Assembly: GCA_035444565.1 (NCBI GenBank)
Contig: DAOMOX010000001.1
Location: 194,335 to 258,334 of the forward strand
DNA from: Candidatus Dojkabacteria bacterium
Lineage (GTDB): Bacteria > Patescibacteriota > Dojkabacteria > B142 > OLB20
Reading direction: 5' to 3'
Length of the DNA stretch: 64,000 nucleotides
Made by a program: the position numbers and the translations under genes. Below are positions 11,854-61,749 of the stretch, one piece after another. The notes beneath the pieces were generated by a model. The model was not told the origin of the DNA. It did no database searches and saw only the letters and a program-made list of their open reading frames with translations. Numbering within the stretch: position 1 is the stretch's first letter; the number at the start of each line of letters is the position of its first letter.

Positions 11854-12609
11854 CTATACATACTCCCCTCGCATTTCTCGCCAAACCACCGACAAAATCT
11901 GCTTCAGCATATCACCAGATTCGCGGAAGAATTTGCGATCTTTTGTACCAGATATATCTTCGTCGTTCCATTTCACTCGAACTTCTTTTATTTTTCCCCC
12001 TTTTTTCTGTATTAAATACAATAATTCGACATCAAATGCAGAAACCGACCAACCCTTTACGTTTTTCACCTTCAAAGCATTTAATTTAGGGAATGTCTCA
12101 CTCAATAAATCTGCTCTGAAAAGTTTGAACCCGCATTGCGTGTCATCAATTTGTCTCAAAAGGAAAAGCTTTCTGAAGCTGCTAAACATAAATCCAGCGA
12201 CTTTGCGGATAACTGTTGCAGAGTTGCGTTTACTGCCTCTAGAACCTATTACAGCTTGATTTTCGGCAATATATGGCATGAGTCTATCCAACTCACTCAA
12301 TGGAGTCGATTGATCCATATCAGTAAACAAAATATATTCACCAAAGGATTCTTGAATCCCACGATTTATAGCTACTGGCTTTCCTCCATGCTCTGCCTCA
12401 ACAATTTTAAGGAATTTTTTATCAGCGTAATTTTTTTTCAAATATTTCAAACTCCCGTCTGTTGAACCATCATCTACTATCAAAACTTCATAAGTAAAAT
12501 CCTGCTTTGATAGATACTTAAAAGCTTTGTGTAATAGACCTTTCTTCAGATTTGAAAGTTCGTTATATTGAGGAATTATTATTGATAAAAAGATTTTATC
12601 CTTTTTCAT
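11854..12609 (-). CDS. GT2 polyprenol-phosphate sugar synthase (Dpm1/GtrB/ArnC-like)
   Basis: SIIIPQYNE...VLIVDDGSTDGS...FTDMDQS (DxD)...CGFKLFR are classic Dpm1-type GT2 motifs. It overlaps the upstream GT-C gene by 14 nt. Confidence 0.8.
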   Translation of the reverse strand: MKKDKIFLSIIIPQYNELSNLKKGLLHKAFKYLSKQDFTYEVLIVDDGSTDGSLKYLKKNYADKKFLKIVEAEHGGKPVAINRGIQESFGEYILFTDMDQSTPLSELDRLMPYIAENQAVIGSRGSKRNSATVIRKVAGFMFSSFRKLFLLRQIDDTQCGFKLFRADLLSETFPKLNALKVKNVKGWSVSAFDVELLYLIQKKGGKIKEVRVKWNDEDISGTKDRKFFRESGDMLKQILSVVWREMRGEYV

Positions 12610-14068
12610 TATTTATATAGATGCTGTAATTGTGTACTTTTTCTGAGAAAGAAAAATTATCTGCACTCTCGAAGAATTTAATCAAAGTTTGATCGGATTC
12701 TTCATCGATAATCAGAACGAGAGCTTCATCACGTAACTCAACTGCTTCTTGCATTTTATCATCTGAGTATACGAGATGGTACCACACCAAATATTTATTG
12801 GTGAAATTACCATTTAATTGCGTAAAAATCCACGGATCGTCACCATAGTAATAATAATCAACGCCTTCATAATTGTTTTCAAAGTGTTCAATCAAATCTT
12901 TTCTTGTTTGGAAAGAGTCATGTTCTTTCCAAAACCAGCTATGACCATCACGCTTACCAAAGAACAAATATTGTGGAAAATCTGAGTAATATCTGATATG
13001 TCCATCAAAGCGTTCTTTATCAATTACAGGAAAGTTAAAGCCTTTGCTAAAGAGAAAAGTTACCAATACTAGAAAACCTAGTATTAATTCAAACAAGTGT
13101 AGTTTAGATGTGGGTTTAGTTTGTAGGTAAATTGCAAGAGACAGAAGTGATATTGGTAATAATTGAATCAGATAATGCATGTAAGGTCTTCCTGAGAGAG
13201 TTACCAACGTGATATCAACTACCAAAGTTAGAAATATTACAAAAACATTTCGACTTACCTGGTTTTTGTATAACTTAACTAAAGCATAATAAAATATCAG
13301 AGCAGACCCTGCGATTTTTATATAGTTCCAATAATTGGCATCTTCTTCCAATTCAATATACCTAAAGTTTGTCAGAAAAGTTGCATCGATAAAGTCATCA
13401 AAAGTCTTATTTAGAACCAAATATGCAAAGTATAGTCCGATTACGAAAAAATAAGTTGAAAGTACTTTTATGTAATATTGATAGTTAAATTTTTTCCTTT
13501 TCTTCCATAGGTCGAATATCGCAACGAGTGCAATTATCGCCACGGACTCGATAAAGGCTTGTGGTTTAATTAAAAAGGCATACGACAAAAGTATTCCAAC
13601 CAGAAAAGGTCTATGGCTAAAGAGAGACAGATACAAGATGGAAAGTGTTGCTGGAATATAAAATACCTCACTGTTAGCTAAATTTCCCTCTAACAAGGGA
13701 GTACCAAGGATGATGGCGAAAATTACCAAAATAAAGCTTTTTAACTTTGACTTTATGCCCAACCTAAGCATCAACTTGTGTAAAATCAAGATTGAGAAAA
13801 CGCCTGCAGAGATATTCATCAATTTTACGAGTACATAGCCCACATCCCAATCGAAAACACCCGCTAATGTGTATATCCAAACCATCATCGGAGGTTTGTG
13901 ATCCCATGCTCCCACATACAACTCTTTTCCCTGAAGAATTGCTTCTGCCTGTGCGGCATAAAACCCTTCATCTGGATACCAATATCCTTCGAATAGACTG
14001 GGTATTCGTAAAATTATGAATATAAATACCGCGATTAGGATAATTTTGTTATTTCTGGTGAGAATCAT
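12596..14068 (-). CDS. GT-C fold membrane glycosyltransferase (PMT/ArnT, GT39/GT83-like)
   Basis: 490 aa with more than 10 TM. The first loop, FEGYWYPDEGFYAAQAEAILQGKELY, carries a DE motif in a PMT/ArnT-like position. It is operonic with the Dpm1-like GT2. Confidence 0.6.
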   Translation of the reverse strand: MILTRNNKIILIAVFIFIILRIPSLFEGYWYPDEGFYAAQAEAILQGKELYVGAWDHKPPMMVWIYTLAGVFDWDVGYVLVKLMNISAGVFSILILHKLMLRLGIKSKLKSFILVIFAIILGTPLLEGNLANSEVFYIPATLSILYLSLFSHRPFLVGILLSYAFLIKPQAFIESVAIIALVAIFDLWKKRKKFNYQYYIKVLSTYFFVIGLYFAYLVLNKTFDDFIDATFLTNFRYIELEEDANYWNYIKIAGSALIFYYALVKLYKNQVSRNVFVIFLTLVVDITLVTLSGRPYMHYLIQLLPISLLSLAIYLQTKPTSKLHLFELILGFLVLVTFLFSKGFNFPVIDKERFDGHIRYYSDFPQYLFFGKRDGHSWFWKEHDSFQTRKDLIEHFENNYEGVDYYYYGDDPWIFTQLNGNFTNKYLVWYHLVYSDDKMQEAVELRDEALVLIIDEESDQTLIKFFESADNFSFSEKVHNYSIYINNEKG

Positions 14069-14163: not shown

Positions 14164-14682
14164 TTATTTTCTCTTCATAAACCCTAAGTCCTTGTTTAAA
14201 ACAAACACAGAACTAAGTAAAACTGAACCCAAACCAAGTGTACTGTACATGTTTATACCTGTATCTGCTAAGACTCTTTGTTCTACAACAGGGGCTGCTG
14301 CAGACAATACTCTAGCAGTAGGTTCTACTGTAGGCTCCACAGGAGTCGATGTAGGAACAACTTCAGTAGGTGTTGGTTCTGGAAGGTCAGTGGGTGTTGG
14401 TGTTGTAGTTGGAGTAGGTGTTGGATCTTCATCACAGACTGGAGCAACATAACCATTGTTGTAACCGTTATTATAGCCATTATTATAATCGTTGTTATAA
14501 CCATTGTTGTAGCCGTTGTTATAGCCATTGTTATAACCGTTGTTATATCCATCATCACGGTGATGTGCGTAAACTACAGCACTATCGGAGAAGATTGACA
14601 CTCCGGATAAGAAACTAAATGTGGCAGTTAAAAAGAGTGTACTTAACATTAAGCTACTCTTTACTTTATTGAAGTTAATCAT
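14164..14682 (-). CDS. secreted surface protein with an (NNGY)n repeat, Thr/Pro-rich linker and C-terminal LADTG sortase-type sorting signal
   Basis: Signal peptide (MINFNKVKSSLMLSTLFLTATFSFLSGVSIFSDSAVVYA). GYNN repeated 9 times (one unit DYNN). TPTPTTTPTPTDLPEPTPTEVVPTSTPVEPTVEPT linker. C-terminal LADTG plus hydrophobic segment plus KDLGFMKRK. Confidence 0.7.
   Translation of the reverse strand: MINFNKVKSSLMLSTLFLTATFSFLSGVSIFSDSAVVYAHHRDDGYNNGYNNGYNNGYNNGYNNDYNNGYNNGYNNGYVAPVCDEDPTPTPTTTPTPTDLPEPTPTEVVPTSTPVEPTVEPTARVLSAAAPVVEQRVLADTGINMYSTLGLGSVLLSSVFVLNKDLGFMKRK
14449..14550. repeat. in-frame 12-nt tandem repeat (about 8.5 copies) encoding the (NNGY)n tract
   Basis: The plus strand reads aaccattgttgta/aaccgttattata/gccattattata/atcgttgttata/aaccattgttgta/gccgttgttata/gccattgttata/aaccgttgttata. 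Confidence 0.85.
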
Positions 14683-14783
14683 TGAAAATAAATAAATGGG
14701 TTAAATTGGCCCGATTATATTACTTTCAAAGGCTTTTGTAAAGCAAAGTACAGAAAATTTAATTATTTTTAGCTAAAAAGAAA

Positions 14784-14808
14784 ACCTCCGGCATAAAATA
14801 CCGGAGGT
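14784..14808 (-). terminator. hairpin ACCTCCGG-cataaaata-CCGGAGGT with a T-run on the minus strand; terminator of the giant adhesin gene
   Basis: Read directly from the sequence. It sits 20 nt downstream of the adhesin stop. Confidence 0.7.
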
Positions 14809-14828
14809 TTAGTTCTTATAATTGCTTA

Positions 14829-17800
14829 CTAGTAGATATTTCTGCGAAATTTATTTTTGTTCAGAATAAATATTGCTGAAATCAGTGATGTACCTAGAAT
14901 AAGTGCTGTTGACATATTTCTCCCTGTATCAGAAAGACTATTACTTGCACCAAGTACTTTTCCGAGTGCACTCGTAGCCATGCCTCTGATATTTCCTGTA
15001 GATTCTTCATCATCAGTTATATTTGCACCAGCCACTTGTGCTCGATTCAAACTAACAGAATCAATGTTATCCTCAGGTGTTGGGTCATCTTCACAGAACT
15101 CAATTACTGGTTCTGGAACCTCAACAATTGAAGGTACAAGAGTTGTAGTAAATTCGTTTACTAACTGACAAGATCTTAAGGCACGAACCTCATTAATTAT
15201 TGAAGTTGCAGTGGAATCCGCAGGTACTAATAATCGAATCTGTGCAGTCCACTCTTCATTAACATCAAGGCTTTCTTTTGTCCATGTAACACGATTGTTT
15301 GCAGGTGTATATTGTCCATTTGGAGAGGAATCATAATATTGCATTCCTGCTGGTAGATTATCCCAAATTTCCACACCATGAGCTGTTTCAGTTCCTTTGT
15401 TTGCAACTCTGATGTTATAGGTAACGAGTTGGCCTGGTGTAAATGTTTCGTTTGTGGTGGTTTTCTCCGCTAATATATCTCCAATAACATTGTTACCGAA
15501 GTTCATATCTTCAAAAACATCACCAGAGCTGTCAATTATAAATGTGTGGTAACCTGGGTCAACAGGATATGTTTGTTCCCATGAACCGTTTGTAACGGCT
15601 TGGTTTACTTCAGTTAGGAAGTATGTGCCAGGCATTAGATTATTGAAAGAATACTCGCCTTCTGTATCAGTCTCCTCTGTATCGACAACTGTTCCGTCAT
15701 ATGTGTCCATTCTTAATTCAACTGTCCATCCCTCCATTTTAGGCTCACCATAGGTCTTTATTCCATCACCATTGTCATCATCCCATTTGTATCCACTCAC
15801 CTGTCCAAGTTCGAAATTTCCAAAATTGAAGTTACTCAAAACCTGACCTGATGTTTCAATCTCAATGTAATGACATTCTGTATCATAATCATCTGAGAAC
15901 GCTACACTTATCTCATTTTGTTTTGATGGATATGTTTGCATCCAACCATCTTGCATTTCCTCACAAAGTTTATATTCTCCTGGAAGCAACCCATCAAACT
16001 CAAAAGCTCCTTTTTCATCTGTCATTTTGTAAGATAATGAATTCATTACTTTATAACCATTTTCTTCATCATCTTCTAGAATCTCTAAAGTTACTTTCCA
16101 ACCTGAGAGTAATGAGTCTTTGTCTTCATCTGCCAACCCATTAGCATTCATATCATCCCACTTATATCCTTGTACTCTTCCAAGTTCAAAGTTTCCAAAG
16201 TTATTACCATGTAATTCTGTACCAACTTGAATAACTAATGGTCCCTGAACTTCATCTCCAGCGGTCTGGGTCCAGCCATCTTTTTGATTCTCATTTAACC
16301 AATAAATACCTGGTAGTAAATTATCAAATTTGTAATAACCGTTTTCATCAGTAGTTTTTGTTTGTATTTTTGAAATTGGGTCTTCTTCGTCACCAGTCCA
16401 TAGATTAATCTCCCAACCTTCTAGTCTGGCGTCTTGTCTGGTCAAAGTTCCATCTCCATTTGTATCTTCAAGTTTATAACCATCAATCAAACCCATTCTT
16501 GTATTTCCAAACTCACAAGTTTCTATACTGCCATTTTCTACTGTCAAATGACAATAACTTGGGCTAGGAGCTGTCTGAATCCATCCAGGTTGATTAATTT
16601 CTACTACTTGGTATTCTCCATTTTCTATCTCTTGTGAATATTCACCATCTTCGTCAGTCTCAACTCTATAATTGGATACATCATATACTCGGACTTCTAA
16701 AGTCCCAGCATTGTCGTTGTACCATGAAGGTGGGTTTGGATCATTATCTTCATCAAATATTCTTAGGTTCGCAACTGCATCATTTCCTTTTATAACAGTC
16801 TTGTATAAATGTGCAGAGTTTGATGAACCCCATTCAATGTTTTGATTATCAATCACAACATCAAGTGTCCTCACATCTCTGCCAGGGTTATCTGCAAAGT
16901 CTGCAGAATTTGACCAGTTGTCAGTTGAATAATATTCTGCATCAGCGAGTTTCGTAACCCCTGAGTAACTGTATGTTCCCTCTACCTCTACCAGGTAATA
17001 CTTCGAGCTTGATAAAACCCCAGTATTTACACCAGTTGGACTATTTGCAGGTAAATCAAGATCATAAATTGGTTCTAGGGTTTCAGGTTTGAGGACAATT
17101 TGCCAATTTGGAATTCCCATTTCTTCATCATCTCTCTCTCCGTTTGCATTTGCATCTTCGAATTTCATACCTTCAATTGCTCCCATTTTTACTGCGTTAA
17201 ATGCAACACAGTAATATGTGTTGTCTTCTTGATACCCACTCAACCATTCCCAGTTGTCGTAATTAGTGGTATCACCAGTACAGTAGAATTCTGCGCTGAC
17301 ATTACCATCGTTTGAGAAAGGAACATAACTTTCATCTGGGAATACTTCTCTAAGCTCTACTCTTCCTCCGACACTTTCTAATTCTGGTAACTCAACTTCA
17401 ACACCTGAACTAAATGTTGTCCATGGATCTCCCATCTCAGTTGTATTTTCCTGAAAGTCTCCAAAACTTCCACTTCCTGCTGGTCCCCATTGGAAATCCC
17501 AGTCTTCTTCAATCTTACACTGACCTCCACTTTGAGCAACCCACTCAGCAGCTGTGTCTGCGTCTATAGGACCTTGTTGATTATTTGGTAAGTATTGTTC
17601 CTCACTACATACAACTTTGGTTGCAAGTAGTTTTGCTGGCTCGCTAACTGGTCTATTTACTAATGTAAATGTTTCAGTTTCATTTTCAACTACTACCTCA
17701 GAAGCTTGACCACTGACATTTTCCCAATCTTTCATTAAGATTTCATTTGTCATGTAGTCTCCATAAGGAACATCTTCAAAAGTTACACAACCATTTTGTT

Positions 17801-19826
17801 CTGTAAATCCTGCATAACCTTCGTAAATATCCACATACATCGAACCTTCATTATCAGTTATGTTGTTATCGAAAGATGTAAATTTAAATTCACCTGTATA
17901 GTTTTCAAAACCTCTTGCATATGTATTTGCTGGTGAGAAGTAACCCCAATCTGCTGGATCATCATTAACTGTAACTCCAAGAGCACCTGTTGTGGTCAAA
18001 TCCATCACATTTATCCATGGGATATATGGACCTACAAATCCATCAGATTCTAATCTTTCTGAATAGGCAGGATCAGTTAATAATTCTGTTCCTCCTCGGT
18101 ATTTATAAGTTCCTCTTGCCATTAGAACATAATCGCCCTCTGGTAGTTCTGATGAGTAACTTGGAGTATAAGGATCTCCTATTTTGTCATCAGGTTCGAC
18201 TTCTACTGTTTCTAGTAATTCTCCTAACAACTGAACATTCCATCCTGGAAGATAATTTTGTTGATTATCTTGTTTACAGACAGTGACATCAGCAAATCTC
18301 TGAACAGGTTTGTTAAATGCTACACAGTAAGCTTCTTTATCTTCATTAAATAATGCATATTCTCCATAATTTGAAATATCACCATGACCTTCGCCATTTC
18401 TGTAACAAGCAAACCCTAATATTCTAGATGGGTCATCCTTTAACTCTCTAACTTCTAATCTACCTTCATATTCAATATCTGAGAGAACACCATCTCCATT
18501 TGCATCTGTTATTACATCATCTAAAGGAAAAACTGGACCTGTGGGGCTTCCACCTCCTGCAGTATCGTCAGGGTGTTGATCAACTTCAAACGTATAAGAT
18601 TCCCCTTCAACACAACCAGCAAAGCTTTCGTCATCAAGTTGATCGAATGCCATTCCATTTACTAAGCCTGATGAGTCAGGTCTGATTTGATTTTCATTCA
18701 AATCTATCTCTCCTGTTGTGAATGATGTTTTATTTAGAACACTACCCTCGCTACATTCATACTTTTTCACAAAAAGTGTTGCCATCGGAGTAGGTGTTGG
18801 AGAATCTGTCGGAACCGGTCTCACACATTCGACACTAACATTATCGATAAATGTTCCTAGTGAATTTGGAGTTCCATCATCCATAAATGAAACTACAGCT
18901 TTTTCCGAAGTTGCTTCGGCTGTCTTTGTATATTTCGTCCAAGTAGTATTTCCAGCTCCTGCACCTGTATGCGTATCTAAGGTGACACCATCCCAAGCAC
19001 TTACAAGTTTATTGTCCGCTTCAGAGGTTCCAGGTCTTGGAGAGAAGTGATATTCGATTTTGTATTCATATCCAGGGATTGTTGCGATTTCTTGACTAAT
19101 TTTTACTGACGCAGGTTCATTGTTTAATGGATTTGATGGTCCGAACCAATCTGCATCAAGCTCAGCATATTGAGCACCAGCTTGCGGTAACCATCCATTT
19201 ACTCCTTTGTGTAATTCAAGATTAGCAACTTTAGGCCTATTTTGACCTTCAAATAATGTTTCGGTACTTTGCCATTCAACTTTCCATTCCAAACCAGCTG
19301 TGTCATTAGGAACTATGTCCCAGTTTGCTGCTGTTGTGACTACTGGAGTTTCAAAATCAGGATTTTTTAGTAGGTTTACACCTGGGGTACAAACAAGTTC
19401 TTCACCAAGTACTTGCGCTCTTTTAAATGATACATGTGAAATATCTTTACAGCTCGAGTCTTTTTCATCTCCCTCCCAAACCTCTGAAACTGTTGCGGAA
19501 CCAGTACCCAGTCCTTCGACCTCAAAACAATCTCCAATAATATCGGCACCATATTCTAAAATATCTTTACCTCCATCTTTGATACATACTTCACTTACTT
19601 TGTAACCCACACCTGCATTATGAGTCTGTTCTTTTTGTTCATCTGGCCAATTATCATATTTAACCCAATCACCGCCTGTTTCAGGACATGTCTCGGCAGC
19701 ATTTGGATTAGTGTTGTCCTCAGGTTTTCCAGCAGCTTGTGCCGGAATCAATCCCACCAGAGGCGAAAAATATTGGAGTAAAATTAAAAATACGGTCAAA
19801 ACCGAAAGGTACTTTTTCCGAGGCAT
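14829..19826 (-). CDS. giant (1665 aa) cell-surface adhesin-like protein with at least four SdrD-B/CnaB-like Ca-binding repeats, a DUF11-like domain and a C-terminal LSDTG sorting signal
   Basis: N-terminal signal peptide. The repeats are GYKLEDTNGDGTLTRQDARLEGWEINLW, GYKWDDMNANGLADEDKDSLLSGWKVTL, GYKWDDDNGDGIKTYGEPKMEGWTVELR and MKFEDANANGERDDEEMGIPNWQIVLK, each followed by a DENGYYKFDNLLPGIYWL-type strand. Near the C-terminus there is TYNIRVANKGTETAHGVEIWDNLPAGMQY (DUF11-like). The protein ends LSDTG plus hydrophobic segment plus KNKFRRNIY. Confidence 0.8.
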   Translation of the reverse strand: MPRKKYLSVLTVFLILLQYFSPLVGLIPAQAAGKPEDNTNPNAAETCPETGGDWVKYDNWPDEQKEQTHNAGVGYKVSEVCIKDGGKDILEYGADIIGDCFEVEGLGTGSATVSEVWEGDEKDSSCKDISHVSFKRAQVLGEELVCTPGVNLLKNPDFETPVVTTAANWDIVPNDTAGLEWKVEWQSTETLFEGQNRPKVANLELHKGVNGWLPQAGAQYAELDADWFGPSNPLNNEPASVKISQEIATIPGYEYKIEYHFSPRPGTSEADNKLVSAWDGVTLDTHTGAGAGNTTWTKYTKTAEATSEKAVVSFMDDGTPNSLGTFIDNVSVECVRPVPTDSPTPTPMATLFVKKYECSEGSVLNKTSFTTGEIDLNENQIRPDSSGLVNGMAFDQLDDESFAGCVEGESYTFEVDQHPDDTAGGGSPTGPVFPLDDVITDANGDGVLSDIEYEGRLEVRELKDDPSRILGFACYRNGEGHGDISNYGEYALFNEDKEAYCVAFNKPVQRFADVTVCKQDNQQNYLPGWNVQLLGELLETVEVEPDDKIGDPYTPSYSSELPEGDYVLMARGTYKYRGGTELLTDPAYSERLESDGFVGPYIPWINVMDLTTTGALGVTVNDDPADWGYFSPANTYARGFENYTGEFKFTSFDNNITDNEGSMYVDIYEGYAGFTEQNGCVTFEDVPYGDYMTNEILMKDWENVSGQASEVVVENETETFTLVNRPVSEPAKLLATKVVCSEEQYLPNNQQGPIDADTAAEWVAQSGGQCKIEEDWDFQWGPAGSGSFGDFQENTTEMGDPWTTFSSGVEVELPELESVGGRVELREVFPDESYVPFSNDGNVSAEFYCTGDTTNYDNWEWLSGYQEDNTYYCVAFNAVKMGAIEGMKFEDANANGERDDEEMGIPNWQIVLKPETLEPIYDLDLPANSPTGVNTGVLSSSKYYLVEVEGTYSYSGVTKLADAEYYSTDNWSNSADFADNPGRDVRTLDVVIDNQNIEWGSSNSAHLYKTVIKGNDAVANLRIFDEDNDPNPPSWYNDNAGTLEVRVYDVSNYRVETDEDGEYSQEIENGEYQVVEINQPGWIQTAPSPSYCHLTVENGSIETCEFGNTRMGLIDGYKLEDTNGDGTLTRQDARLEGWEINLWTGDEEDPISKIQTKTTDENGYYKFDNLLPGIYWLNENQKDGWTQTAGDEVQGPLVIQVGTELHGNNFGNFELGRVQGYKWDDMNANGLADEDKDSLLSGWKVTLEILEDDEENGYKVMNSLSYKMTDEKGAFEFDGLLPGEYKLCEEMQDGWMQTYPSKQNEISVAFSDDYDTECHYIEIETSGQVLSNFNFGNFELGQVSGYKWDDDNGDGIKTYGEPKMEGWTVELRMDTYDGTVVDTEETDTEGEYSFNNLMPGTYFLTEVNQAVTNGSWEQTYPVDPGYHTFIIDSSGDVFEDMNFGNNVIGDILAEKTTTNETFTPGQLVTYNIRVANKGTETAHGVEIWDNLPAGMQYYDSSPNGQYTPANNRVTWTKESLDVNEEWTAQIRLLVPADSTATSIINEVRALRSCQLVNEFTTTLVPSIVEVPEPVIEFCEDDPTPEDNIDSVSLNRAQVAGANITDDEESTGNIRGMATSALGKVLGASNSLSDTGRNMSTALILGTSLISAIFILNKNKFRRNIY
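15500..17180 (-). repeat. block of SdrD-B/CnaB-like domain repeats inside the adhesin gene (protein-level repeats)
   Basis: Repeat starts map near 17170, 16495, 16170 and 15790 (minus-strand codons). Confidence 0.6.
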
Positions 19827-20184: not shown

Positions 20185-22779
20185 TTAAGGAAATATGTAA
20201 CTAGAGTTTTTTGTAATAATTCCTTTGAATCTGTCAACAATATTTTTACCCTTTAATTGTTCATCCTTAGCTAGTTTTTTATTCACTAACCATTGTCTAG
20301 ATTTTCTAGAGATATAAAATCCTTTCGTAGACATTATTGCGTAAATCCCCGACCTCCTATAAAATTCTTGCAAAATATCCAATTCGTTTTCCTCAGGTTT
20401 AATATCTTTTTCCTTAAACCTCCGAGAAATCGACTTATAAACCCTTGCTGCTGTACCGAAAGTGTTGTTGTGATGTTTATCTGGATCGGTGATTATCATT
20501 TCATAAAAAACAGGGTCTGCATCAGGATTATCTTTATCACCTAACATAAACACCACTTTTATATCCTTATATCCTGTTTTTCGATCCACAAATTGAACTA
20601 GGTCAATCATCTCATCAATTCCAAGTCTTTGCCTTGTCTTTTTCTCGAAGTCTTTTGCCACTAATTTAAAGTCTTCATTATCAGGAAGTGAAATTCTTAT
20701 AGCTAATTTCGGTTTTTCCCCATCAACACTTTCATATGGCCTACCAATAGAAAGTGAAAGATTTGCGAAATTATCATTTTTCTGTGATTCTTCGAATTCC
20801 GACAAAATATTTTCAATGGTTTCAAAAGCACTTAACATAAATGATCCATCATCCTGATTCTCTTTAAGAACAATCCTACATCGAAATATATCTGTAACTC
20901 GAGTTATTCCTTCCGAGAGGAATTTATTAAAAATACCCATAAAACTTTTTCTATCAAATTCAATTACACCCGTAGATGAAGCTACCCGCTTAATTACCTT
21001 CTCCATTTTATTCACTCCAAATTCGGATTGTGACATATACTGATCTACTTTAGATTGAATTTCATTAAACCCTTCTTCAGACAATAGTTCCCTCTGAAAT
21101 TTTTCTTCAACTTTATTATTTAGTACCTTTGCCATTCCCTTAAGTCCAAATGATTCAATCAAAGGAATCAGAAGATATTTACATTCCTGCAATTGCCTCC
21201 AAAGGTAGGTAGGGTCAATTTCTTCAATTCCTTCAAGATGATCAATATTATCGAAGAATTCTAATGACCTTAGCAAAGGACCCTCAATATCAAATGCCTG
21301 AGATTCCCTAAATGCCTTTAATGGGATATTTCCCATAGAAGGTCTTAGTCTAAAAAATTTATCTTTATTAGCTCTGAAGAACTCAAAGCTTCGTTTCCGA
21401 CTGTTATCATGACTCTTACTAGGTTTGCCCAGAATTGATTGCAAATGTTGTTTAAAATCTTTCAATTCATCCTTCTTCTCCTCGGAAAGGTCAGGACCAA
21501 TGTTCAATCCGTATACTGAATTGATATTATGGACAGGTATCTCGGACTTATCTTCAATCGCTTTTGATGAATAAGCAATTCCAATAGAATATCTTAATAA
21601 TTCTGCCATTTCTGGATTACTCTCATCCATAGTTGCTAAAGTGGACCGTAATTTATCTTGGAACGCCTTGGTTTCTACGAAGTCATGTAAAAAAATTGCC
21701 CCAACCATACCTGTCGAGTTTACTACACCGTATTCGGAAGAATTCTTCTCCAGATCTCTTATCATCCTAATTATATGCTCATACCTATCCACCCTGTTTC
21801 CAACCTTCCCCGGCCTACCCATCCACTCCACAATAATATTGTGAATATATTTTAAATAGTTTGTTGATAATTCTTGATCTCTTTCAATTTTTTTAAGTAC
21901 TTGTTCAAACTTATTAAATAAAGGTAAATTTGAACCTCTAAATACCTCTAGATAATTCTCTTTTGTTTCCTCAAGATATTTCATAGGTCTTGATTTATAT
22001 TTCTCATCCGTTAATACTTCTAGAGTAGGAGCTTTTCCAATATCATCGATATGATTTACCATTCGGTCTATCATCTTTACAAATTTTATTACCCGCTTTT
22101 TACCCGCAATTTTTTTCGCATACTCTTCTATTGATACTCCCTCACCTTTAGAATGTGTCAAAGCTTCAATATTATCTTTAAGTTGAGGGGGAAAATGATC
22201 GATATATTCTTCAAATTTAGAGTCTTTAATATCCTCTAACCAATCATGTCCTATAAATGTAAATACTGATTCAAAAAAATTAAGTGGATCATCCCCATCA
22301 TCTTCAAGAATATCATTTATTATTTCCCCCCTATTATCAAAAATCACCCTTAACCCTGGTAATAGATGCCCGTATAAGGATCTCCTTAAACCATCCCTCC
22401 TCTTGTCATTTGAGTGAATTAATTTACTAACTTCTAAGGCATTTAATAATAAAGAATATTCCTCAGAACTTATGTAGTTGGCGCCCAAGTAAAATGCGAA
22501 TTCGTGTTCAATTTCTTCGGGGGTGGCAAAATTTACAGTATCTTCTAACCATGTTTCTCTTGATGTAGGGGTAAAAAATAGATCTTGTAATGCAACACCG
22601 TATTTGAATTCTAACCAAGCTTGTTCCCTATTTTCATTTCTAATAATTTGATCTATAGAATTTTGCCCTCCACTTAGTGTCTCTAAACGACCGAGATGAA
22701 AAGAAGCCATCAAATAGGGATCGTTATTTAAACGATCTTTAATCTCTGGAGTTATTACTAATTCTTGTTCGGGATTCAT
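20185..22779 (-). CDS. large cytoplasmic protein (864 aa) with an N-terminal HD-like motif and a C-terminal RelA/SpoT-type nucleotidyltransferase-like region (tentative)
   Basis: ...SLYGHLLPGLRV...FTFIGHDWLEDIKD is an HD-like H...HD..ED pattern. The C-terminus reads DIFRCRIVLKENQDDGSFML...GYKDIKVVFMLGD...PVFYEMIITDPDKHHNNTFGTAARVYK. This resembles the RSH synthetase D-x-x-G-x-R-I-I ... G-Y-x-S-L-H ... E-V-Q-I-R-T ... A-A-H-x-x-Y-K arrangement. Confidence 0.45.
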   Translation of the reverse strand: MNPEQELVITPEIKDRLNNDPYLMASFHLGRLETLSGGQNSIDQIIRNENREQAWLEFKYGVALQDLFFTPTSRETWLEDTVNFATPEEIEHEFAFYLGANYISSEEYSLLLNALEVSKLIHSNDKRRDGLRRSLYGHLLPGLRVIFDNRGEIINDILEDDGDDPLNFFESVFTFIGHDWLEDIKDSKFEEYIDHFPPQLKDNIEALTHSKGEGVSIEEYAKKIAGKKRVIKFVKMIDRMVNHIDDIGKAPTLEVLTDEKYKSRPMKYLEETKENYLEVFRGSNLPLFNKFEQVLKKIERDQELSTNYLKYIHNIIVEWMGRPGKVGNRVDRYEHIIRMIRDLEKNSSEYGVVNSTGMVGAIFLHDFVETKAFQDKLRSTLATMDESNPEMAELLRYSIGIAYSSKAIEDKSEIPVHNINSVYGLNIGPDLSEEKKDELKDFKQHLQSILGKPSKSHDNSRKRSFEFFRANKDKFFRLRPSMGNIPLKAFRESQAFDIEGPLLRSLEFFDNIDHLEGIEEIDPTYLWRQLQECKYLLIPLIESFGLKGMAKVLNNKVEEKFQRELLSEEGFNEIQSKVDQYMSQSEFGVNKMEKVIKRVASSTGVIEFDRKSFMGIFNKFLSEGITRVTDIFRCRIVLKENQDDGSFMLSAFETIENILSEFEESQKNDNFANLSLSIGRPYESVDGEKPKLAIRISLPDNEDFKLVAKDFEKKTRQRLGIDEMIDLVQFVDRKTGYKDIKVVFMLGDKDNPDADPVFYEMIITDPDKHHNNTFGTAARVYKSISRRFKEKDIKPEENELDILQEFYRRSGIYAIMSTKGFYISRKSRQWLVNKKLAKDEQLKGKNIVDRFKGIITKNSSYIFP

Positions 22780-23592: not shown

Positions 23593-24993
23593 TTAATCTC
23601 TAAGCATTCTCACTCTAGTCTGGATGATTATTGCCATAAGCGCTATAACTCCAACAATTACTAATAACATTGAATATTCAGGAATAGTCACCACTAATGG
23701 GAAAAATCCAAGTGCTAAAACCATTTCTGGAATTACAAATTTTGAACTAAATTTGAATCCTGCAATTCGACCTAATAGATAATACATCAATCCCCCAATA
23801 ACTACCACTGCTATAAGGAATGCCAGATAGAGTGGCATGGAGAAATTAGGCACTTTAGAGAAATTACTGAAAAGTTCAATCGTAGGATCAATGGTGAAAC
23901 TCGAAAGATAATGTACGAATGGGAAATACAGTGTAAACAATATTGTGACAAGAAGCATATCAAATAATGATAGCTTTCTTTTACCAAATCTATACGCCAA
24001 ATAAAGTGTAATTATTATAAATACGAAATACACTGGTGCCATCGTCAAATACACTCTGGAAACCTGTGCTGACGGATTGAGTTTGTCACCGACAGTTATA
24101 CTAACCTTTGGTTTTGAGTATAAATCTGGCTTGTCCCAGAACAAACTTACAGCACCATCCCCAAATTCTCTGTCAGTTACTGCTAGACCATCGTTGACAT
24201 CATATGACCTTGTTCCATTAATTGTAACTTTGAATTTGAAGTCTTGAGAACCTTTTGGATTTTCAATTCCTTCGTAGTTAAAACTAGAGACACCTACAGT
24301 TTCGTATCTTACCTCAACATTTACATCTTCCCCTGCTGGAATTTTCCCTTCCCAGCTTAGTCCGTCGTATTGAGTATTGTTATAGTAATTATAATCATAG
24401 GGCGATTTGGTCGGATTAATAGTGATTTGAGTCTTCGCATTAGTTACTTCTTCTCCATTAACTAATAATGTAGCATTACTAATCTCTTGTGAGCTGATAT
24501 TTCCAGGGAAAGGAAATTGAAACTTAATAAGACTTTCTTCATTAAGTTCATTTCTTAATAAATAAACGGATTTGAAGCTAGTTTTAAACGTAGGCTGATA
24601 AACCAATCCCTTTTTCACGAAATCTGCAGTGATTGTGACATCTGCATCTGTTGACTGTAAGCTGGTATTCTCGACATATCTCTTTGCGACATCATAAGAT
24701 AAGTCATTCTCTACATATAGTGAACTTTTTGTGTCCAACATTCCCAAACTTGGTGCAGATTGTGCCAATGGACCTCCATAGAGTTCTGCTGTTCCTGAGT
24801 AATTTCTATATGCAATTTCATTTCTTTCCTGTGCAATTGCTGACATTATCAAACTAAACACTCCAATGATTATCGTAAAGATAATAGTGAAAAAAATGTA
24901 CTGGATAACCAGAGAATCGACAGATTTCTTGACTGGTTTTGGCTGTGGTTGTGGTGTTTCTAACTTAGGGGCGTGAGTTGGTTGTTCGTTCAT
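23593..24993 (-). CDS. membrane protein with CreD-like architecture (N-terminal TM, about 250-aa extracytoplasmic domain, C-terminal 5-TM bundle)
   Basis: Topology only. Pro-rich cytoplasmic N-terminus, one TM, a beta-rich middle, then 5 TM. Confidence 0.35.
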   Translation of the reverse strand: MNEQPTHAPKLETPQPQPKPVKKSVDSLVIQYIFFTIIFTIIIGVFSLIMSAIAQERNEIAYRNYSGTAELYGGPLAQSAPSLGMLDTKSSLYVENDLSYDVAKRYVENTSLQSTDADVTITADFVKKGLVYQPTFKTSFKSVYLLRNELNEESLIKFQFPFPGNISSQEISNATLLVNGEEVTNAKTQITINPTKSPYDYNYYNNTQYDGLSWEGKIPAGEDVNVEVRYETVGVSSFNYEGIENPKGSQDFKFKVTINGTRSYDVNDGLAVTDREFGDGAVSLFWDKPDLYSKPKVSITVGDKLNPSAQVSRVYLTMAPVYFVFIIITLYLAYRFGKRKLSLFDMLLVTILFTLYFPFVHYLSSFTIDPTIELFSNFSKVPNFSMPLYLAFLIAVVVIGGLMYYLLGRIAGFKFSSKFVIPEMVLALGFFPLVVTIPEYSMLLVIVGVIALMAIIIQTRVRMLRD

Positions 24994-45789: not shown

Positions 45790-46563
45790 ATGAATTTGTT
45801 CCTTAGCAAGGTATATGCTCAAGTTGATGGAGTAGTCTCTCCAACAATACCTTTCACTCCTCCTGGGAGCATTACCCCTACCACAGCTGGACCCACCACG
45901 GCGGTTGTAGGACCATCGATTTCTCTGACTTCTGAGGAAACAACACTAGAAGTTGGAACTACTTCGAAAATTCAAGTCGTGATAGACACACAACTCCAAC
46001 CAATTAGCCAATATTCTATACAAATACTTTTCAGTCCTGAATTCTTAAGGGTAGTAGATTTTGATGACAGTACGGATAGTATCGAAGTCGATTTTAGAGA
46101 CACATTCTTCGACTCCACGATTAATGAAGTATCACAACAACAAGGAATTATCACAATCAGTGCCGAGAACCCTGCTGGTTCATCTAGTATCACTAGTCGA
46201 GTTGTAGCAGAAATCCAAGTAGAAGCACTCAAAGCGGGTTTTGCAGAAGTTTCGATTGGTCGAGAAAATTCCAATTTACTGACTTCGGGATCTGCTGATA
46301 TTCTCCAAAATACCACTACTGTTGAATTTGTGATTGGTGGAGGCGGAGGAACTGGACCTACCATAGTAATTCCTTCTACAAGCATCAATCCGAACGTATC
46401 TGTATTGCCATCGAGTGATATACCTCTACCAAGTCGGACTCCCGACACAGCAATAACTGATAACCTCCGAGCCCCAGCTGCCCTTATTTTAGGTGTCATC
46501 TTGATATCTATGGGAAGCTACTTCATCAAACTTAGAAATACGAATGAGAGTAAGAAAAATTGA
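45790..46563 (+). CDS. secreted beta-sandwich (cohesin-like, tentative) protein with C-terminal TM anchor and basic tail
   Basis: N-terminal signal-like segment, Thr/Pro-rich stretch, GGGGGTGP linker. C-terminal LRAPAALILGVILISMGSYFIKLRNTNESKKN (TM plus basic tail, but no L[AS]DTG motif). Confidence 0.4.
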   Translation: MNLFLSKVYAQVDGVVSPTIPFTPPGSITPTTAGPTTAVVGPSISLTSEETTLEVGTTSKIQVVIDTQLQPISQYSIQILFSPEFLRVVDFDDSTDSIEVDFRDTFFDSTINEVSQQQGIITISAENPAGSSSITSRVVAEIQVEALKAGFAEVSIGRENSNLLTSGSADILQNTTTVEFVIGGGGGTGPTIVIPSTSINPNVSVLPSSDIPLPSRTPDTAITDNLRAPAALILGVILISMGSYFIKLRNTNESKKN

Positions 46564-47768: not shown

Positions 47769-50700
47769 ATGTTTGATTTGGAAATCGTCATACCCGTTCT
47801 CAATGAAGAGAAGGCAGTGGCAGAATTAATTAAAAGAATAGACAAGAGTCTGAGATCCGAAAAGATTTCGTATAGGATGATTTTTGTTGATGACCATTCT
47901 ACCGACAAAACGGTTGAGATAATTCAATCATTTAAGAAAAAATATCCAATTCTTCTTCACACAAAGACAGGGAAACCTGGCAAAGCATACTCTATCCTTG
48001 AAGGTGCAAACCTTGCGTCATCTGAAAAAATTGCAATGCTTGACGGCGACCTGCAGTACCCACCTGAGGTACTTCCCCATATGTTCAGACTTTCTGAAAT
48101 CTACGGAGTGGTTGTGGCAGATAGAAAAAAGGAACATCTGTCTTTATTGCGAAGAGCTCTATCTAATCTCAATTCACAGATGATTGGGAAGTATCTGTTG
48201 AAGCTTGACTGTGACTCTCAATCCGGACTAAAAGTATTCAGAAAAGAAATAATTGAACAATTAAACAAAAAAGATTTGCAACCTTGGGCATTGGACATGC
48301 CTTTACTATACGCTGCATTGAATATGGGTTATAAAATTGGAAACGTAGAGATTGACTTTGTAGATCGAGCTTATGGAACATCCAAGGTTAACTTCATCAA
48401 AACCACATTTGAAATTATCTCCACCGCATTCTCACTTAAATTTTTCTCCTCAAAGATTGCATCTATTAAACCGGAAAGAGATTCAATGCTTGGGTCGGGG
48501 GTCATCTATAAAAACAAAAAGTATATAACCCACACCACACTTCCGCATTCCGAATCTGCGCTTTATACGTTTACCCGAAAACAGAAGCTAATTATTATCA
48601 GTTTGATTGTGGGTATATTGGCGGGATTGATACTTAATCCACTAAACGCCTTGATTGTGATTGTGGCAATTTTGAGTTTGATCTATTTTGCAGATGTTGT
48701 TTTTGGAGCGTATGTATTGGCGAAAAGTTTACATTATCCACCAGAGTTAACGTTTGATGCAGAGGAATTAAATAATCTGAAAACAAAAGATCTACCTACC
48801 TACAGTATTCTCTGTCCATTATATAAGGAGGGCAACATATTGCCTGAATTCGTAAAATCCATTAGAAATCTCGACTGGCCAAAGCGTAAATTAGATGTCT
48901 TAATACTGCTTGAAAAAGACGATAAAGAAACACTTGCCGCCGCAAAGAAGCTTAGACTTCCAAAGTATATAAGAGTTATTGTTGTTCCCGATTCACAACC
49001 CCGGACCAAACCAAAGGCTTGTAATTATGGTCTACAATTATCGAAAGGAGAATATGTAGTAATTTTTGATGCAGAAGACAAACCAGACCCACTTCAATTA
49101 AAGAAAGCGTATCTCGGATTCCGAAAAAGCGGAGAGAAGGTCTTCTGTTTGCAATCTAAACTTAATTACTACAATCCAGACGATAATCTTCTGACCAGAC
49201 TTTTTACAGCGGAATATTCTCTGTGGTTCGATGTCATCCTTCCAGGATTGCAATCAATCAAAACAACAATTCCACTTGGAGGAACAAGTAATCACTTCAG
49301 GACAAAGCAATTGATTACCATGCAAGGATGGGACCCATTCAATGTTACAGAAGATTGCGATCTCGGTGTCAGAATCTTCAAAGCAGGATATTCAACAGCA
49401 ATTATCGACTCAACGACATATGAAGAGGCAAATAGCTCCCCGAAAAACTGGGTTAGGCAACGTTCTCGGTGGATTAAGGGCTATATGCAAACATATTTGG
49501 TTCATATGAGAAATCCTCTAAAATTTCTACGAGAGCACGGAATTCATGCTCTCATCTTTCAATTAATTATAGGTATGCGAATCAGCTTTATGCTGATTAA
49601 CCCTTTACTATGGTTGGCTACTTTTGTCTATTTTGCATTTAGACCATTTGTTGGGGAATACATCGAAGCTCTTTATCCATCATGGATTTTCTACATCGCA
49701 GGAATTTCTCTTGTCGGTGGAAATTTCATGTACATATTTAATTATATGATTGGATGTGCAAAGAAGGAACACTACGGTTTAATCAAGTATGTCTTCTTTA
49801 TCCCTCTTTATTGGATTCTTGCTAGTGTCGCCGCATTCAAAGCAGCGCAACAACTAATTCTCAAGCCACACTTCTGGGAGAAGACCCATCATGGATTACA
49901 TCTCTCGACCAAAGAAACCAACCAAATTGTAAAAGAAGAATTAAAATCGAAACGAGTATCAGAGAAAAATAAATTTAATTTTAGACCCAAAATCAGTCCC
50001 TACTTCAATAAAGCTACAACATTGCTAAAGGGTGGTAGTTTTGGAATAACACTATTAGTTGGGGCATCCGTAGGTGCCAATTTCCTTGATTTCTTAACTA
50101 GTACTTACCTTGGCAGAAATCTTGGTTCTGAAGAATTTGGATTAATTGGATTGATGGGAAGTTTTATTTTCATAGTCAATTTGATCGCTGCTGGAATAAA
50201 TAAAACGGTATCCCACCAGACTGCTTTCGTGTATGGGAAATACGGGAAACCTGTTGGAAGATTGTGGTATGAACATCGTAACAAAGTTATTAAATTATCC
50301 ATCCTCTTTACTCTTATATGGTTGTTGGTAGTTCCGTTTTCAGAAGACTTTTTTAACTCGCATACACTCTTTCCTTTTCTTGTATTCACTCCCGTTTGGG
50401 TTTCCTTAATGCTTAAAGCATGGGATGGAGGTTATCTAGAAGGAAGTCTTAAATTCACCTGGTTGGCAGTCCTTACACTAGTAGCAGCATTTTCAAAACT
50501 ATTGTTCTCAGTAATATTTGTAACTTTTGGATTGGAACACCTCGTTTACGCAGCTGGACCGATATCCTTATTCCTCGGATTCTGTGGAGGTTGGATAGTC
50601 GCTAGGAAAATAGCTCATCAAAATACTGATACTACTACTAAGCCTTCAAGGGCAAATATGAGATTCTCTCGAGCATTCTTAGCAACTGCTACCATAGCAA

Positions 50701-52517: not shown

Positions 52518-53454
52518 ACAAATCAAACAAAATACCCCAAATCAGAACTTCCCTGAAAAGATAGAGCATTTTTCCTTTGTTCACAATCTCGGAGAATTTG
52601 GGAAAGATTCTTCTTTTCACTTCGCACTTTATAGGGACACTGAAGGGAATGAATATGTCTGTAAACTATTTAAGGGAAAAAAGAATAGTCTTAAGTACAG
52701 GTCGATAAAAAATGAAATATCTGCTTACAAAGCTCTTAATCAAAGTTCTCCAACCCTACAAAGCCCATTAGGTTTCGAGATTTCAATTCCAAAAATCTAT
52801 AGCACTTATGAAAACGATGAGATTGTCTGCTTTATTATGGACAAGGTGTCAGGAAACTCCTTAGACAATGAGTCAATTGACAGAATAATTCAATCCTACC
52901 AAGCTATAGCAGAATATTTACTAAAATTTTCCATAGAAGCTGATTTAAGTAAAACAGGTGTACTTAGAAGGAATTTCATTCAATTTTTCCTCTTGTATCA
53001 CTACTATTGCCTTCGAGTAATTCTTAAAAATCCTGAATTAATATTGAAGATTATTAATACTATTCCAGTCTTTTATAGAGGAATTATTAACTTTAGTATT
53101 GATAGAACGAATACACTTGTTATCCGAGACTTAGCAAGTAATAATAATATATTTATTGATAATAAAAAGCTATTAATAATTGATTTAGAATCTGCAACAA
53201 TAACTCATCCAATTATTCAGTTGTCCAGTTTTGTTGTTGTGGAGTCGGCAAACAAAGATTTTCTATTAAAGTTGTGTAATTCAGAAATTACTAAATCTAT
53301 CATGGGGAATCATAGAAATCTACTAATATTTAAAGCCATGTTGGTTTACGGTGCTATGGTCGATATCGTTGCTAACTATATGACCGATAAAGATCCAGTT
53401 AAAAAATCATCCGTGAATTTAATTAATGAAACATTCAAACTGAAACTATCATGA
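52507..53454 (+). CDS. kinase-like phosphotransferase (APH/choline-kinase fold), probable sugar or small-molecule kinase
   Basis: VIRDLASNNNIFID (catalytic-loop-like, aligning with HxDLxxxN) and LIIDLESA (DFG-equivalent IDxE). The start is taken at the ATG at 52507 (MLTKQ...), an 11-nt overlap instead of 83 nt. Confidence 0.45.
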   Translation: MLTKQIKQNTPNQNFPEKIEHFSFVHNLGEFGKDSSFHFALYRDTEGNEYVCKLFKGKKNSLKYRSIKNEISAYKALNQSSPTLQSPLGFEISIPKIYSTYENDEIVCFIMDKVSGNSLDNESIDRIIQSYQAIAEYLLKFSIEADLSKTGVLRRNFIQFFLLYHYYCLRVILKNPELILKIINTIPVFYRGIINFSIDRTNTLVIRDLASNNNIFIDNKKLLIIDLESATITHPIIQLSSFVVVESANKDFLLKLCNSEITKSIMGNHRNLLIFKAMLVYGAMVDIVANYMTDKDPVKKSSVNLINETFKLKLS

Positions 53455-56357: not shown

Positions 56358-56359
56358 TA

Positions 56360-57436: not shown

Positions 57437-57461
57437 TTATATAAAAAAGCACTTTAAAGAA

Positions 57462-61668: not shown

Positions 61669-61749
61669 GGAGACATTTTTGGCAAAATTTGATAAAATCA
61701 TGCACTAGGTAAAGGAATTACTATATTAGTACATATTTTTTAAAGCATT

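Follow-up and report, generated by a model that had tools for sequence, protein, structure and literature searches.

Bacteria of the CPR (Patescibacteria) are believed to spend their lives attached to other cells; to our knowledge, very little is known about how they display their surface proteins. The question is raised in concrete form by a stretch of 64,000 nucleotides (the window) from Candidatus Dojkabacteria (WS6, CPR), originating from activated sludge. It carries a gene for a 1665-residue adhesin-like protein whose tail is built like a sorting signal, with LSDTG in the place of LPXTG. How would such a protein be held at the cell surface, and which enzyme would read its tail? The reading that we favor, and consider reasonably probable, is that the protein is a fibrillar adhesin which a sortase anchors by way of a variant sorting signal.

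Layout of the adhesin

A first-pass annotation had recognized in this reading frame the layout of a sortase substrate, with signal peptide, ectodomain, LSDTG, hydrophobic segment and basic tail, and all of these elements are present. The gene and the features preceding the tail are the following.

14829-19826, minus strand: adhesin gene, 1665 aa plus stop, ATG start
19734-19826, minus strand: putative signal peptide, residues 1-31, MPRKKYLSVLTVFLILLQYFSPLVGLIPAQA followed by A, read from the sequence
18792-19403, minus strand: DUF642-like head with CBM fold, residues ~142-345 (PF04862, AF2, Foldseek)
17646-18314, minus strand: internal module A, residues ~505-727, with GTYKYRGG
16497-17201, minus strand: internal module A', residues ~876-1110, with GTYSYSG, second copy of module A
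15492-16496, minus strand: three SdrD_B/SpaA stalk repeats, residues ~1111-1445 (PF17210, PF17802)
15183-15479, minus strand: DUF11 (CLIPPER) stalk domain, residues 1450-1548 (PF01345)
14782-14810, minus strand: terminator-like hairpin with a 13-bp stem just past the adhesin stop codon, a consensus match only

An identical protein (P0001) exists in the databases, and a partial copy at NCBI (P0004) bears the title 'SdrD B-like domain-containing protein [Candidatus Dojkabacteria bacterium]'. The N-terminus has the basic n-region, the hydrophobic core and the AQA/A junction of a Sec signal peptide, with the cut probably falling after AQA, and it is kept in the orthologs (P0003-P0013). The protein would be exported by the Sec route through this peptide.

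Segments that match the head at about 50% identity occur in more than 40 CPR surface proteins and in one archaeal protein. The match of the head to DUF642 (PF04862, residues 241-332) is marginal, its 27.9 bits barely exceeding the cut-off of 27, and that to the choice-of-anchor C family (TIGR04362) stays below threshold (35.6 bits, cut-off 120). The AF2 model of the head has a pLDDT above 90, and Foldseek aligns it with CBM61, CBM4, CBM16 and a porphyran CBM at TM(target) values of 0.6-0.72. On the strength of this model, the head is plausibly a distinct N-terminal adhesive domain of the fibrillar-adhesin type, with a predicted binding function; placed at the tip, it might recognize a glycan on another cell or surface. 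The combination of a fibrillar architecture with a CBM-like head makes a role in host attachment plausible.

Below the head, a stalk of beta-sandwiches would comprise two modules of about 200 residues, three SdrD_B/SpaA repeats and one DUF11/CLIPPER domain. The second internal repeat type noted in the first pass is real: the GTYKY and GTYSY modules, A and A', share 22% identity (E 1e-5, pairwise BLASTP), a kinship that emerged from direct pairwise comparison after self-BLAST at default sensitivity had missed the repeats. The count of four or more SdrD-B repeats was slightly generous, as three GYK[LW][ED]D repeat starts are clear (residues 1116, 1220 and 1345) and the fourth, near 880, is degenerate. 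SdrD_B is matched in three stretches (116 bits, cut-off 29.7, E 1.2e-33) and SpaA in four (81 bits, cut-off 23.1, E 5.5e-23), and the repeats carry D-x-N-x-N/D-G motifs of the calcium type. DUF11, for which an HMM search had been proposed along with SdrD_B and Cna_B, was likewise found (61 bits, cut-off 24.6, E 1.8e-16), while the Pfam search gave no match to Cna_B in the adhesin. Residues K1455, D1489 and N1545 of the DUF11 domain lie at the spacing of an isopeptide triad (34/90, against 33/91 in 9IFR; PMC12617251), and an intramolecular isopeptide bond may form there.

These properties invite comparison with two groups of known proteins. With fibrillar adhesins that have SdrD_B/SpaA/CLIPPER stalks (PMC12617251) the Dojkabacteria protein shares its general plan, in which an adhesive N-terminal domain is followed by a stalk of repeated CnaA/CnaB-like beta-sandwiches and the protein ends in a sorting signal. 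With the staphylococcal Sdr MSCRAMMs it shares the SdrD_B repeats and their calcium-type D-x-N-x-N-G motifs; however, it has neither the A-region (N2N3) nor the Ser-Asp repeat, carries a DUF642/CBM-like jelly-roll head instead and belongs to a CPR bacterium. The SdrC model (NF000535) reaches 24 bits, far below its cut-off of 1700, and spans the B-repeat region only. Since the principle of a fibrillar adhesin with a sortase-type signal is well established, the advance made here is an incremental one.

The tail and its conservation

The C-terminal end of the adhesin reads, in order, VLGAS (1624-1628), NS, LSDTG (1631-1635), RNMST, ALILGTSLISAIFIL and NKNKFRRNIY. A second tail of this kind belongs to the neighboring gene.

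14943-14957, minus strand: VLGAS motif, residues 1624-1628, conserved, N-terminal to the pentapeptide
14922-14936, minus strand: LSDTG pentapeptide, residues 1631-1635, positional equivalent of LPXTG
14832-14906, minus strand: hydrophobic segment 1641-1655 and basic end NKNKFRRNIY 1656-1665
14164-14682, minus strand: 172-aa protein with signal peptide, (NGYN)n repeat, PT-rich linker and RVLADTG tail
14257-14271, minus strand: LADTG pentapeptide of the 172-aa protein, residues 138-142

The hydrophobic segment of the adhesin has 15 residues, among them a Gly conserved across tails, and positively charged residues follow at the extreme C-terminus. The neighbor with a homologous LADTG tail, mentioned without coordinates in the first pass, is this 172-aa gene and not the upstream gene of 864 aa; its tail aligns with that of the adhesin and has the same hydrophobic segment and basic end. 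The gene contains a 12-nt tandem repeat at 14449-14552, and an NCBI partial copy of its product (P0074) also comes from Dojkabacteria. Canonical L-P-x-T-G is absent from both tails. A six-frame scan of the window found just these two L[AS]DTG tails, in adjacent genes, and all orthologs and paralogs that we examined carry the motif too; such adjacency and recurrence are more than chance. Elsewhere in the window, a protein encoded at 45790-46563 ends in a membrane segment and a basic end with no VLG/LxxTG, which argues against the motif being something that C-terminal anchors of this genome generally bring with them.

We compared 16 distinct tails from Dojkabacteria loci. The first and last positions of the pentapeptide are L and G in all of them, and T is found in 15. 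Position 2 is A in eight, S in six and Q and P in one each, and position 3 varies freely (D, A, E, V, P, K, S, Q). The aspartate is therefore no part of the motif, and the LxDTG specificity postulated for a dedicated sortase was mistaken: D occupies the free X of LPXTG, and what has changed is the proline position (A/S/Q/P). Upstream, in 22 CPR tails of the Dojkabacteria and LPATG types, the V of VLG is invariant and its L and G are conserved in at least 90%. Read from these alignments, the apparent signal of the lineage is V-L-G-A-S, one to three residues, then L-[A/S, rarely P/Q/T]-x-T-G-[R/K].

Proline is the strongest determinant for most sortases, and its loss from 15 of the 16 tails lends itself to another reading, the chief rival of ours. 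The sortase might have been lost in Dojkabacteria, leaving L-x-x-T-G as a decaying relic and the adhesin tethered to the membrane by its C-terminal helix, an uncleaved stop-transfer anchor. Occasional tails that deviate further, LADAG and LQATG, would fit such decay. We nonetheless regard this as rather unlikely. The tails of paralogs are overall just 20-40% identical, yet L, T and G are nearly invariant among them while X drifts, which is the pattern of an enzyme recognition site and not of a plain membrane anchor; the upstream VLG is kept as well, and 15 hydrophobic residues make a short helix for stably anchoring a 1665-aa protein through a wall.

Family models place the tail close to the known signal. 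The only meaningful family match of the adhesin tail is to TIGR01167 (LPXTG_anchor), just below the cut-off of 15.9 bits: it scores 15.0 bits and the 172-aa protein 12.0. Higher values go to a Dojkabacteria ortholog (P0196, 17.0) and to tails from Microgenomates (20-21). PF00746 (cut-off 20 bits) matched neither the adhesin nor the 172-aa tail. P0196 has canonical LPATG and comes from the same syntenic island; a single orthologous system therefore shows P, S and A as alternatives at the same place of the motif. Searched with a profile of the tail, a collection of 5.8 billion proteins returned two matches, both fragments of proteins already in the set; an exhaustive search of a representative protein library gave just 13, including a few new tails, and showed the family to be narrow. 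A metagenome scan with the tail yielded two loci only.

Known sorting signals and the search for a sortase

What the Dojkabacteria tails share with the LPXTG signal of TIGR01167 and PF00746 is the accompanying signal peptide, the L, T and G of the pentapeptide, the hydrophobic segment and the basic C-terminal end. They differ from it in having Ser (adhesin) or Ala (172-aa protein) for Pro, with scores just under the cut-off, Arg or Lys after the Gly, and a conserved VLG(A/x)S 5-7 residues upstream. The motif had been called non-canonical, and the proline is indeed replaced; as a positional homolog of LPXTG it is less exotic than this implied, because Ala at that place is already known from the class E signal LAXTG (PMC5148588). 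LAXTG is an established signal in Actinobacteria, where it is served in Streptomyces chaplins by SrtE1/E2, and SrtE1 tolerates Ala as well as Pro there (PMC5148588), a breadth that the Dojkabacteria tails appear to require. Ala stands in 8 of the 16 tails, LADTG included; unlike in class E, Ser is about as common and Q, T and P also occur, in a different phylum. By the class E mark of Ala at position P3, LADTG of the 172-aa protein has Ala and LSDTG of the adhesin has Ser. Taking the NF033747 model and its conserved Tyr in the beta3/beta4 loop as the hallmark of the enzymes, we found the CPR sortases examined, from other lineages, to reach only 29-46 bits where the cut-off is 160. Judged by these comparisons, the tail is an LPXTG signal with a relaxed proline position that extends across the lineage and resembles the class E signal: a modest variation on the well-known sortase system and no new system.

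The closest parallel lies in Microgenomates. Column by column, the adhesin tail can be aligned with the 'QVLGAS-x-E-LPATG' ends of Microgenomates proteins of 1300-2080 aa, and in at least 11 loci the gene for such a protein comes directly after a PF04203 sortase gene. VLGAS, the layout of the tail and the DUF642/SdrD_B/SpaA/DUF11 repertoire are common to both. In contrast, the Microgenomates tails retain Pro and continue with N/S where those of Dojkabacteria have R/K, and the Microgenomates sortase gene is adjacent whereas the adhesins of Dojkabacteria occupy an island of their own, near which no sortase was found.

Sortases are enriched in CPR bacteria (PMC6744442; PMC3812714), and outside Microgenomates the literature describes them as 'patchily detected'. 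Our searches relied on HMMs, as a TLxTC regular expression alone is an unsafe test because many CPR sortases carry TLQTS. As first noted from the reading frames, the window holds no sortase: phmmer with a CPR sortase and SrtA, and a CPR-sortase HMM, found none among all six-frame ORFs. The result was the same for about 15 kb of contig flanking the window, which brings the part of the source contig covered to about 79 kb, and for about 20 related Dojkabacteria loci; the gene neighborhoods of 12 proteins gave each time the same syntenic island, without a sortase. No protein named Dojkabacteria figured among the best 120 of 6475 matches in a CPR-sortase protein search; with the CPR-sortase profile on genome contigs, the best 80 of 273 matches were all from Microgenomates or Parcubacteria, none of them titled Dojkabacteria. 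The literature held no link of Dojkabacteria or WS6 to a sortase beyond one general statement. The empty searches of the source contig and many syntenic loci, and the patchiness of the enzyme, are what an uncleaved anchor would predict; against this, the searches covered just a small fraction of any Dojkabacteria genome. These results also weigh against the favored reading, as do the scores of the tail under the curated cut-offs and the deviating tails LADAG and LQATG.

On the favored reading of a sortase-anchored adhesin, the C-terminal hydrophobic segment and basic end would hold the exported protein in the membrane until a sortase-family transpeptidase cuts LSDTG between Thr1634 and Gly1635 and joins the adhesin to peptidoglycan. 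The 172-aa neighbor would be sorted by the same signal, as LADTG. A candidate peptide substrate for the putative Dojkabacteria sortase is VLGASNSLSDTGRN. The locus provides a clear case, common to the lineage, of a signal derived from LPXTG in which the proline position is relaxed and a VLG motif is conserved upstream. Wall anchoring in Dojkabacteria gains a testable handle, namely the enzyme that reads L-[A/S]-x-T-G and the role of VLG in recognition. Motif-based predictors demanding LPXTG will miss proteins with Dojkabacteria tails.

A membrane protein beside the island

One could ask whether anchoring proceeds without a conventional adjacent sortase, through a divergent sortase encoded elsewhere that reads 'L-x-x-T-G + upstream VLG' or through a non-sortase enzyme; we think this very unlikely. 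The candidate for the latter is a Cys-free, polytopic membrane protein of 490 aa.

12596-14068: 490-aa polytopic membrane protein, Cys-free

That this protein, or some other undescribed enzyme, processes the tail strikes us as most improbable, although several features draw attention to it. Its gene lies directly downstream of tail-bearing genes in 8 of 9 independent Dojkabacteria loci, the protein is conserved with many invariant polar residues, and profile searches of Pfam, NCBIfam and PDB sequences gave no match. On the other hand, locus L010 lacks it and still holds two tail-bearing genes, a GT2 glycosyltransferase invariably accompanies it, and the tail is a homolog of genuine sortase signals. 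The protein also carries W-Y-x-D-E-G and W-D-H-K-P-P motifs, which we take to resemble those of GT-C glycosyltransferases of the ArnT/PMT type and which would point to glycosylation rather than proteolysis; the same three profile searches, all empty, leave the GT-C assignment unconfirmed. Were non-sortase processing of an LPXTG-derived tail true, it would amount to a new protein-sorting system in CPR bacteria. A single-sequence structure model of the protein had a pLDDT of 44.7, too low for use. An exosortase- or archaeosortase-like role was ruled out, as the protein has no cysteine and no family match. The adhesin island itself is hypervariable, its gene content differing among close Dojkabacteria relatives.

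Domain architecture of the adhesin and its neighbour

In six-frame translation, two proteins of the window, and only these two, end in an L[AS]DTG pentapeptide followed by a hydrophobic segment and a basic end.

Tail-bearing proteins of the window
14829..19826 (-): adhesin ORF, ATG start, 1665 residues
residues 1631-1635: LSDTG pentapeptide of the adhesin
residues 1641-1655: hydrophobic stretch of the adhesin, 15 residues
residues 1656-1665: basic end of the adhesin
14164..14682 (-): ORF of the LADTG-bearing neighbour, 172 aa

The layout described in the first-pass annotation (signal peptide, repetitive ectodomain and LSDTG-hydrophobic-basic end) is present in full in the 1665-aa ORF, which opens with a typical signal peptide (MPRKKYLSVLTVFLILLQYFSPLVGLIPAQA/A), closes with ...GKVLGASNSLSDTGRNMSTALILGTSLISAIFILNKNKFRRNIY and is followed 3' of its stop codon by a terminator-like hairpin. 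The neighbouring LADTG gene, also correctly spotted, has a promoter-like site on its 5' side; its product runs from a signal peptide through an (NGYN)n repeat and a Pro/Thr-rich linker to the tail ...RVLADTGINMYSTLGLGSVLLSSVFVLNKDLGFMKRK. A 12-nt tandem repeat (8.7 copies, 14449-14552) codes for the (NGYN)n stretch, possibly a length-variable spacer.

Two families anticipated for the adhesin, SdrD_B (116 bits, three stretches) and DUF11 (61 bits, residues 1450-1548), are indeed found by Pfam, along with SpaA (81 bits, four stretches) and DUF642 (27.9 bits, cut-off 27); NCBIfam yields TIGR01451 and, below its threshold, choice-of-anchor C. "Four or more" SdrD-B repeats had been counted: three GYK[LW][ED]D starts stand (1116, 1220 and 1345), the fourth, near 880, being only a degenerate copy. 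The second repeat type is genuine, GTYKYRGG and GTYSYSG marking the two copies of a module of ~200 residues (~505-727 and ~876-1110; 22% identity, E 1e-5). SdrD_B, SpaA and DUF11/CLIPPER are standard stalk families of fibrillar adhesins, many with intramolecular isopeptide bonds (PMC12617251), and the adhesin is a new member of this known kind. In its DUF11 domain, K1455, D1489 and N1545 have the spacing of the 9IFR triad, suggesting that an isopeptide bond may form there.

Modelling of residues 34-346 with 37 homologs gave a mean pLDDT of 87.7, exceeding 90 over the DUF642-like part, and the predicted head fold matches CBM61, CBM4-2, CBM16 and a porphyran CBM with TM(target) of 0.6-0.72. The DUF642-like head domain recurs at ~50% identity in dozens of surface proteins from CPR bacteria and in one from an archaeon. 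The latter (P0051, 45% identity), annotated as from a Thermoplasmatota archaeon, suggests either cross-domain exchange of a surface module or a mis-binned contig.

The adhesin itself occurs in metagenome assemblies as an identical protein and as close orthologs, and an identical copy of its tail is found in an activated-sludge assembly. A partial copy at NCBI is named, by automated annotation, [quoted passage not shown]; the NCBI copy of the 172-aa protein is likewise from Dojkabacteria (WS6), a CPR/Patescibacteria lineage. The window maps to the ENA contig ERZ773355 NODE_6_length_216726; its G+C is ~36%.

The proposed Dojkabacteria sorting signal

Orthologs of the adhesin (P0002-P0013 and P0016) keep the tail; they do not keep the aspartate.

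Pentapeptide residues in all distinct tails pooled from Dojkabacteria loci (n=16)
position 1: L, 16/16
position 2: A ×8, S ×6, Q ×1, P ×1
position 3: D, A, P, V, K, S, Q
position 4: T, 15/16
position 5: G, 16/16
next residue: usually R/K

Across these and the further tails given below, the Dojkabacteria motif reads as L-[A/S, rarely P/T/Q]-x-T-G. The LxDTG specificity initially proposed thus gives way: D occupies the free X position, and it is the proline position that has really changed. A library of 50%-identity representatives supplied further tails (LTNTG, LSSTG and LSQTG), together with an ortholog, P0196, that carries a canonical LPATG-R and is located in the same syntenic island as the other tail-bearing genes.

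CPR homologs more remote from the adhesin have canonical LPxTG ends with "VLGxS" before the pentapeptide, and a PF04203 sortase gene adjoins two of them. When a profile built from these sortases was scanned against one genome per species, the best 80 of 273 loci were all from Microgenomates/Parcubacteria, none from a Dojkabacteria genome. At no fewer than 11 of those 80 loci the sortase is directly followed by a 1300-2080-aa ORF ending in "QVLGAS(T/I)ELPATG(N/S)", a hydrophobic segment and a basic end. In a joint alignment, the VLG, L, T and G of the Dojkabacteria tails share columns with those of the sortase-linked LPATG tails. The VLG is conserved in each of the CPR tails examined, 5-7 residues ahead of the pentapeptide, and may be an extended recognition element. 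Examples of the Microgenomates pairs of sortase and surface protein, among loci L014-L093, are L035:8001-13198, L051, L054 and L064.

TIGR01167 (LPXTG_anchor) scores of tails scanned alone; cut-off 15.9 bits
adhesin (LSDTG): 15.0 bits
172-aa protein (LADTG): 12.0 bits
P0196 (LPATG): 17.0 bits
Microgenomates tails: 20-21 bits

Judged by these scores, both window tails appear to be LPXTG-type signals, placed just under the threshold by the P-to-S/A change. The adhesin is predicted to work like an LPXTG sortase substrate, although under strict membership it falls outside on pentapeptide and HMM cut-offs. Class E signals ("LAXTG"), an established type, have alanine in place of the proline, and SrtE1 accepts Ala as well as Pro there (PMC5148588). 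The Dojkabacteria tails resemble them at the changed position; unlike class E signals, however, they carry Ser as often as Ala, and no class E enzyme has come to light. They would represent a new, lineage-wide form of a known signal, one that LPXTG-based predictors miss. The original observation is confirmed and its interpretation partly supported.

Anchoring and the sortase question

The adhesin would probably be exported via Sec, held by its tail and joined to the wall by transpeptidation at Thr1634, so that a rigid, Ca-stabilised stalk presents a glycan-binding head. What the analysis establishes is domain identity, the fold of the head and the homology of the tail; cleavage, anchoring, ligand and host we infer. 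The locus is a useful, testable pointer to adhesin display in a CPR lineage.

As first noted, the window holds no sortase gene detectable by phmmer with S. aureus SrtA and a CPR sortase as queries, nor by hmmsearch of six-frame ORFs with the CPR profile (positive controls, 249-286 bits), which was equally negative for ~15 kb of the source contig flanking the window and for ~20 related Dojkabacteria loci. Within the CPR, sortase occurs almost throughout Microgenomates and patchily in other groups (PMC6744442); it is present in SR1, WWE3 and TM7 genomes (PMC3812714). The missing sortase, like the loss of proline from the pentapeptide, would suit a tail that is an uncleaved anchor left after sortase loss. 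We consider this rather unlikely, since L, T, G and the upstream VLG are near-invariant in otherwise divergent paralog tails. Moreover, a 257-aa secreted protein of the window (45790-46563, +) provides an internal contrast to both sorting-signal tails: its C-terminus has a membrane segment and a basic end yet lacks VLG/LxxTG (...SRTPDTAITDNLRAPAALILGVILISMGSYFIKLRNTNESKKN). A new principle would be at hand only if the genome turned out to lack sortase.

Among the best 120 of 6475 CPR sortases (P0075-P0194), 32 have TLQTS, with Ser for the catalytic Cys of TLxTC. Apparently of Parcubacteria type, they keep the His (GHSSDY) and Arg (e.g. L009:6773-7375); one of them adjoins an LPRTG protein. We found no mention of this variant of CPR sortases in the literature.

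A hypervariable adhesin island

Tail-bearing genes occupy one syntenic slot in every Dojkabacteria locus examined.

Gene order around the slot
1: MacB-type ABC transporter
2: ~470-aa protein
3: DHH phosphoesterase (inorganic pyrophosphatase in the window)
4: 800-900-aa cytoplasmic protein, no family
5: 1-3 tail-bearing genes, 161 to 2479 aa, differing widely in size and domain content
6: ~490-aa polytopic membrane protein (absent in locus L010)
7: GT2 glycosyltransferase
8: TrpRS and SpoU methylase

Whole modules are gained and lost among adhesin orthologs, and the slot is a hypervariable adhesin island. Conserved upstream of it in every Dojkabacteria locus examined are an 864-aa protein (20185-22779, -) and a 466-aa protein that follows the MacB-type transporter (23593-24993, -), neither with a Pfam or NCBIfam match.

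On the 3' side, in 8 of 9 Dojkabacteria loci, lies the pair of membrane protein (490 aa in the window, 12596-14068, -) and GT2 (11854-12609, -; weak ArnC/PgfS-like matches). The former, without a match in Pfam, NCBIfam or PDB, has invariant W-Y-x-D-E-G-F-Y and W-D-H-K-P-P motifs. Were the tail read by an enzyme other than a sortase, this unclassifiable protein would be the only nearby candidate; that is highly improbable, as it is devoid of cysteine, is always paired with the GT2 and carries motifs that may be GT-C-like. It could instead be a GT-C-type enzyme glycosylating PT-rich adhesins.

Genes for cell-envelope glycosylation form a long run on one strand (47769-62817, +); among them are a 1582-aa GT2 and GT4 fusion that also contains a large membrane region, PIG-L, Acetyltransf_6 and a gene resembling mannose-1-phosphate guanylyltransferase. 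Just past the window end, the source contig carries an ATP-citrate-lyase-like gene pair (L095:11118-14228; ATP-grasp_2/Citrate_bind and Ligase_CoA/Citrate_synt), unexpected for a CPR genome with sparse metabolism.
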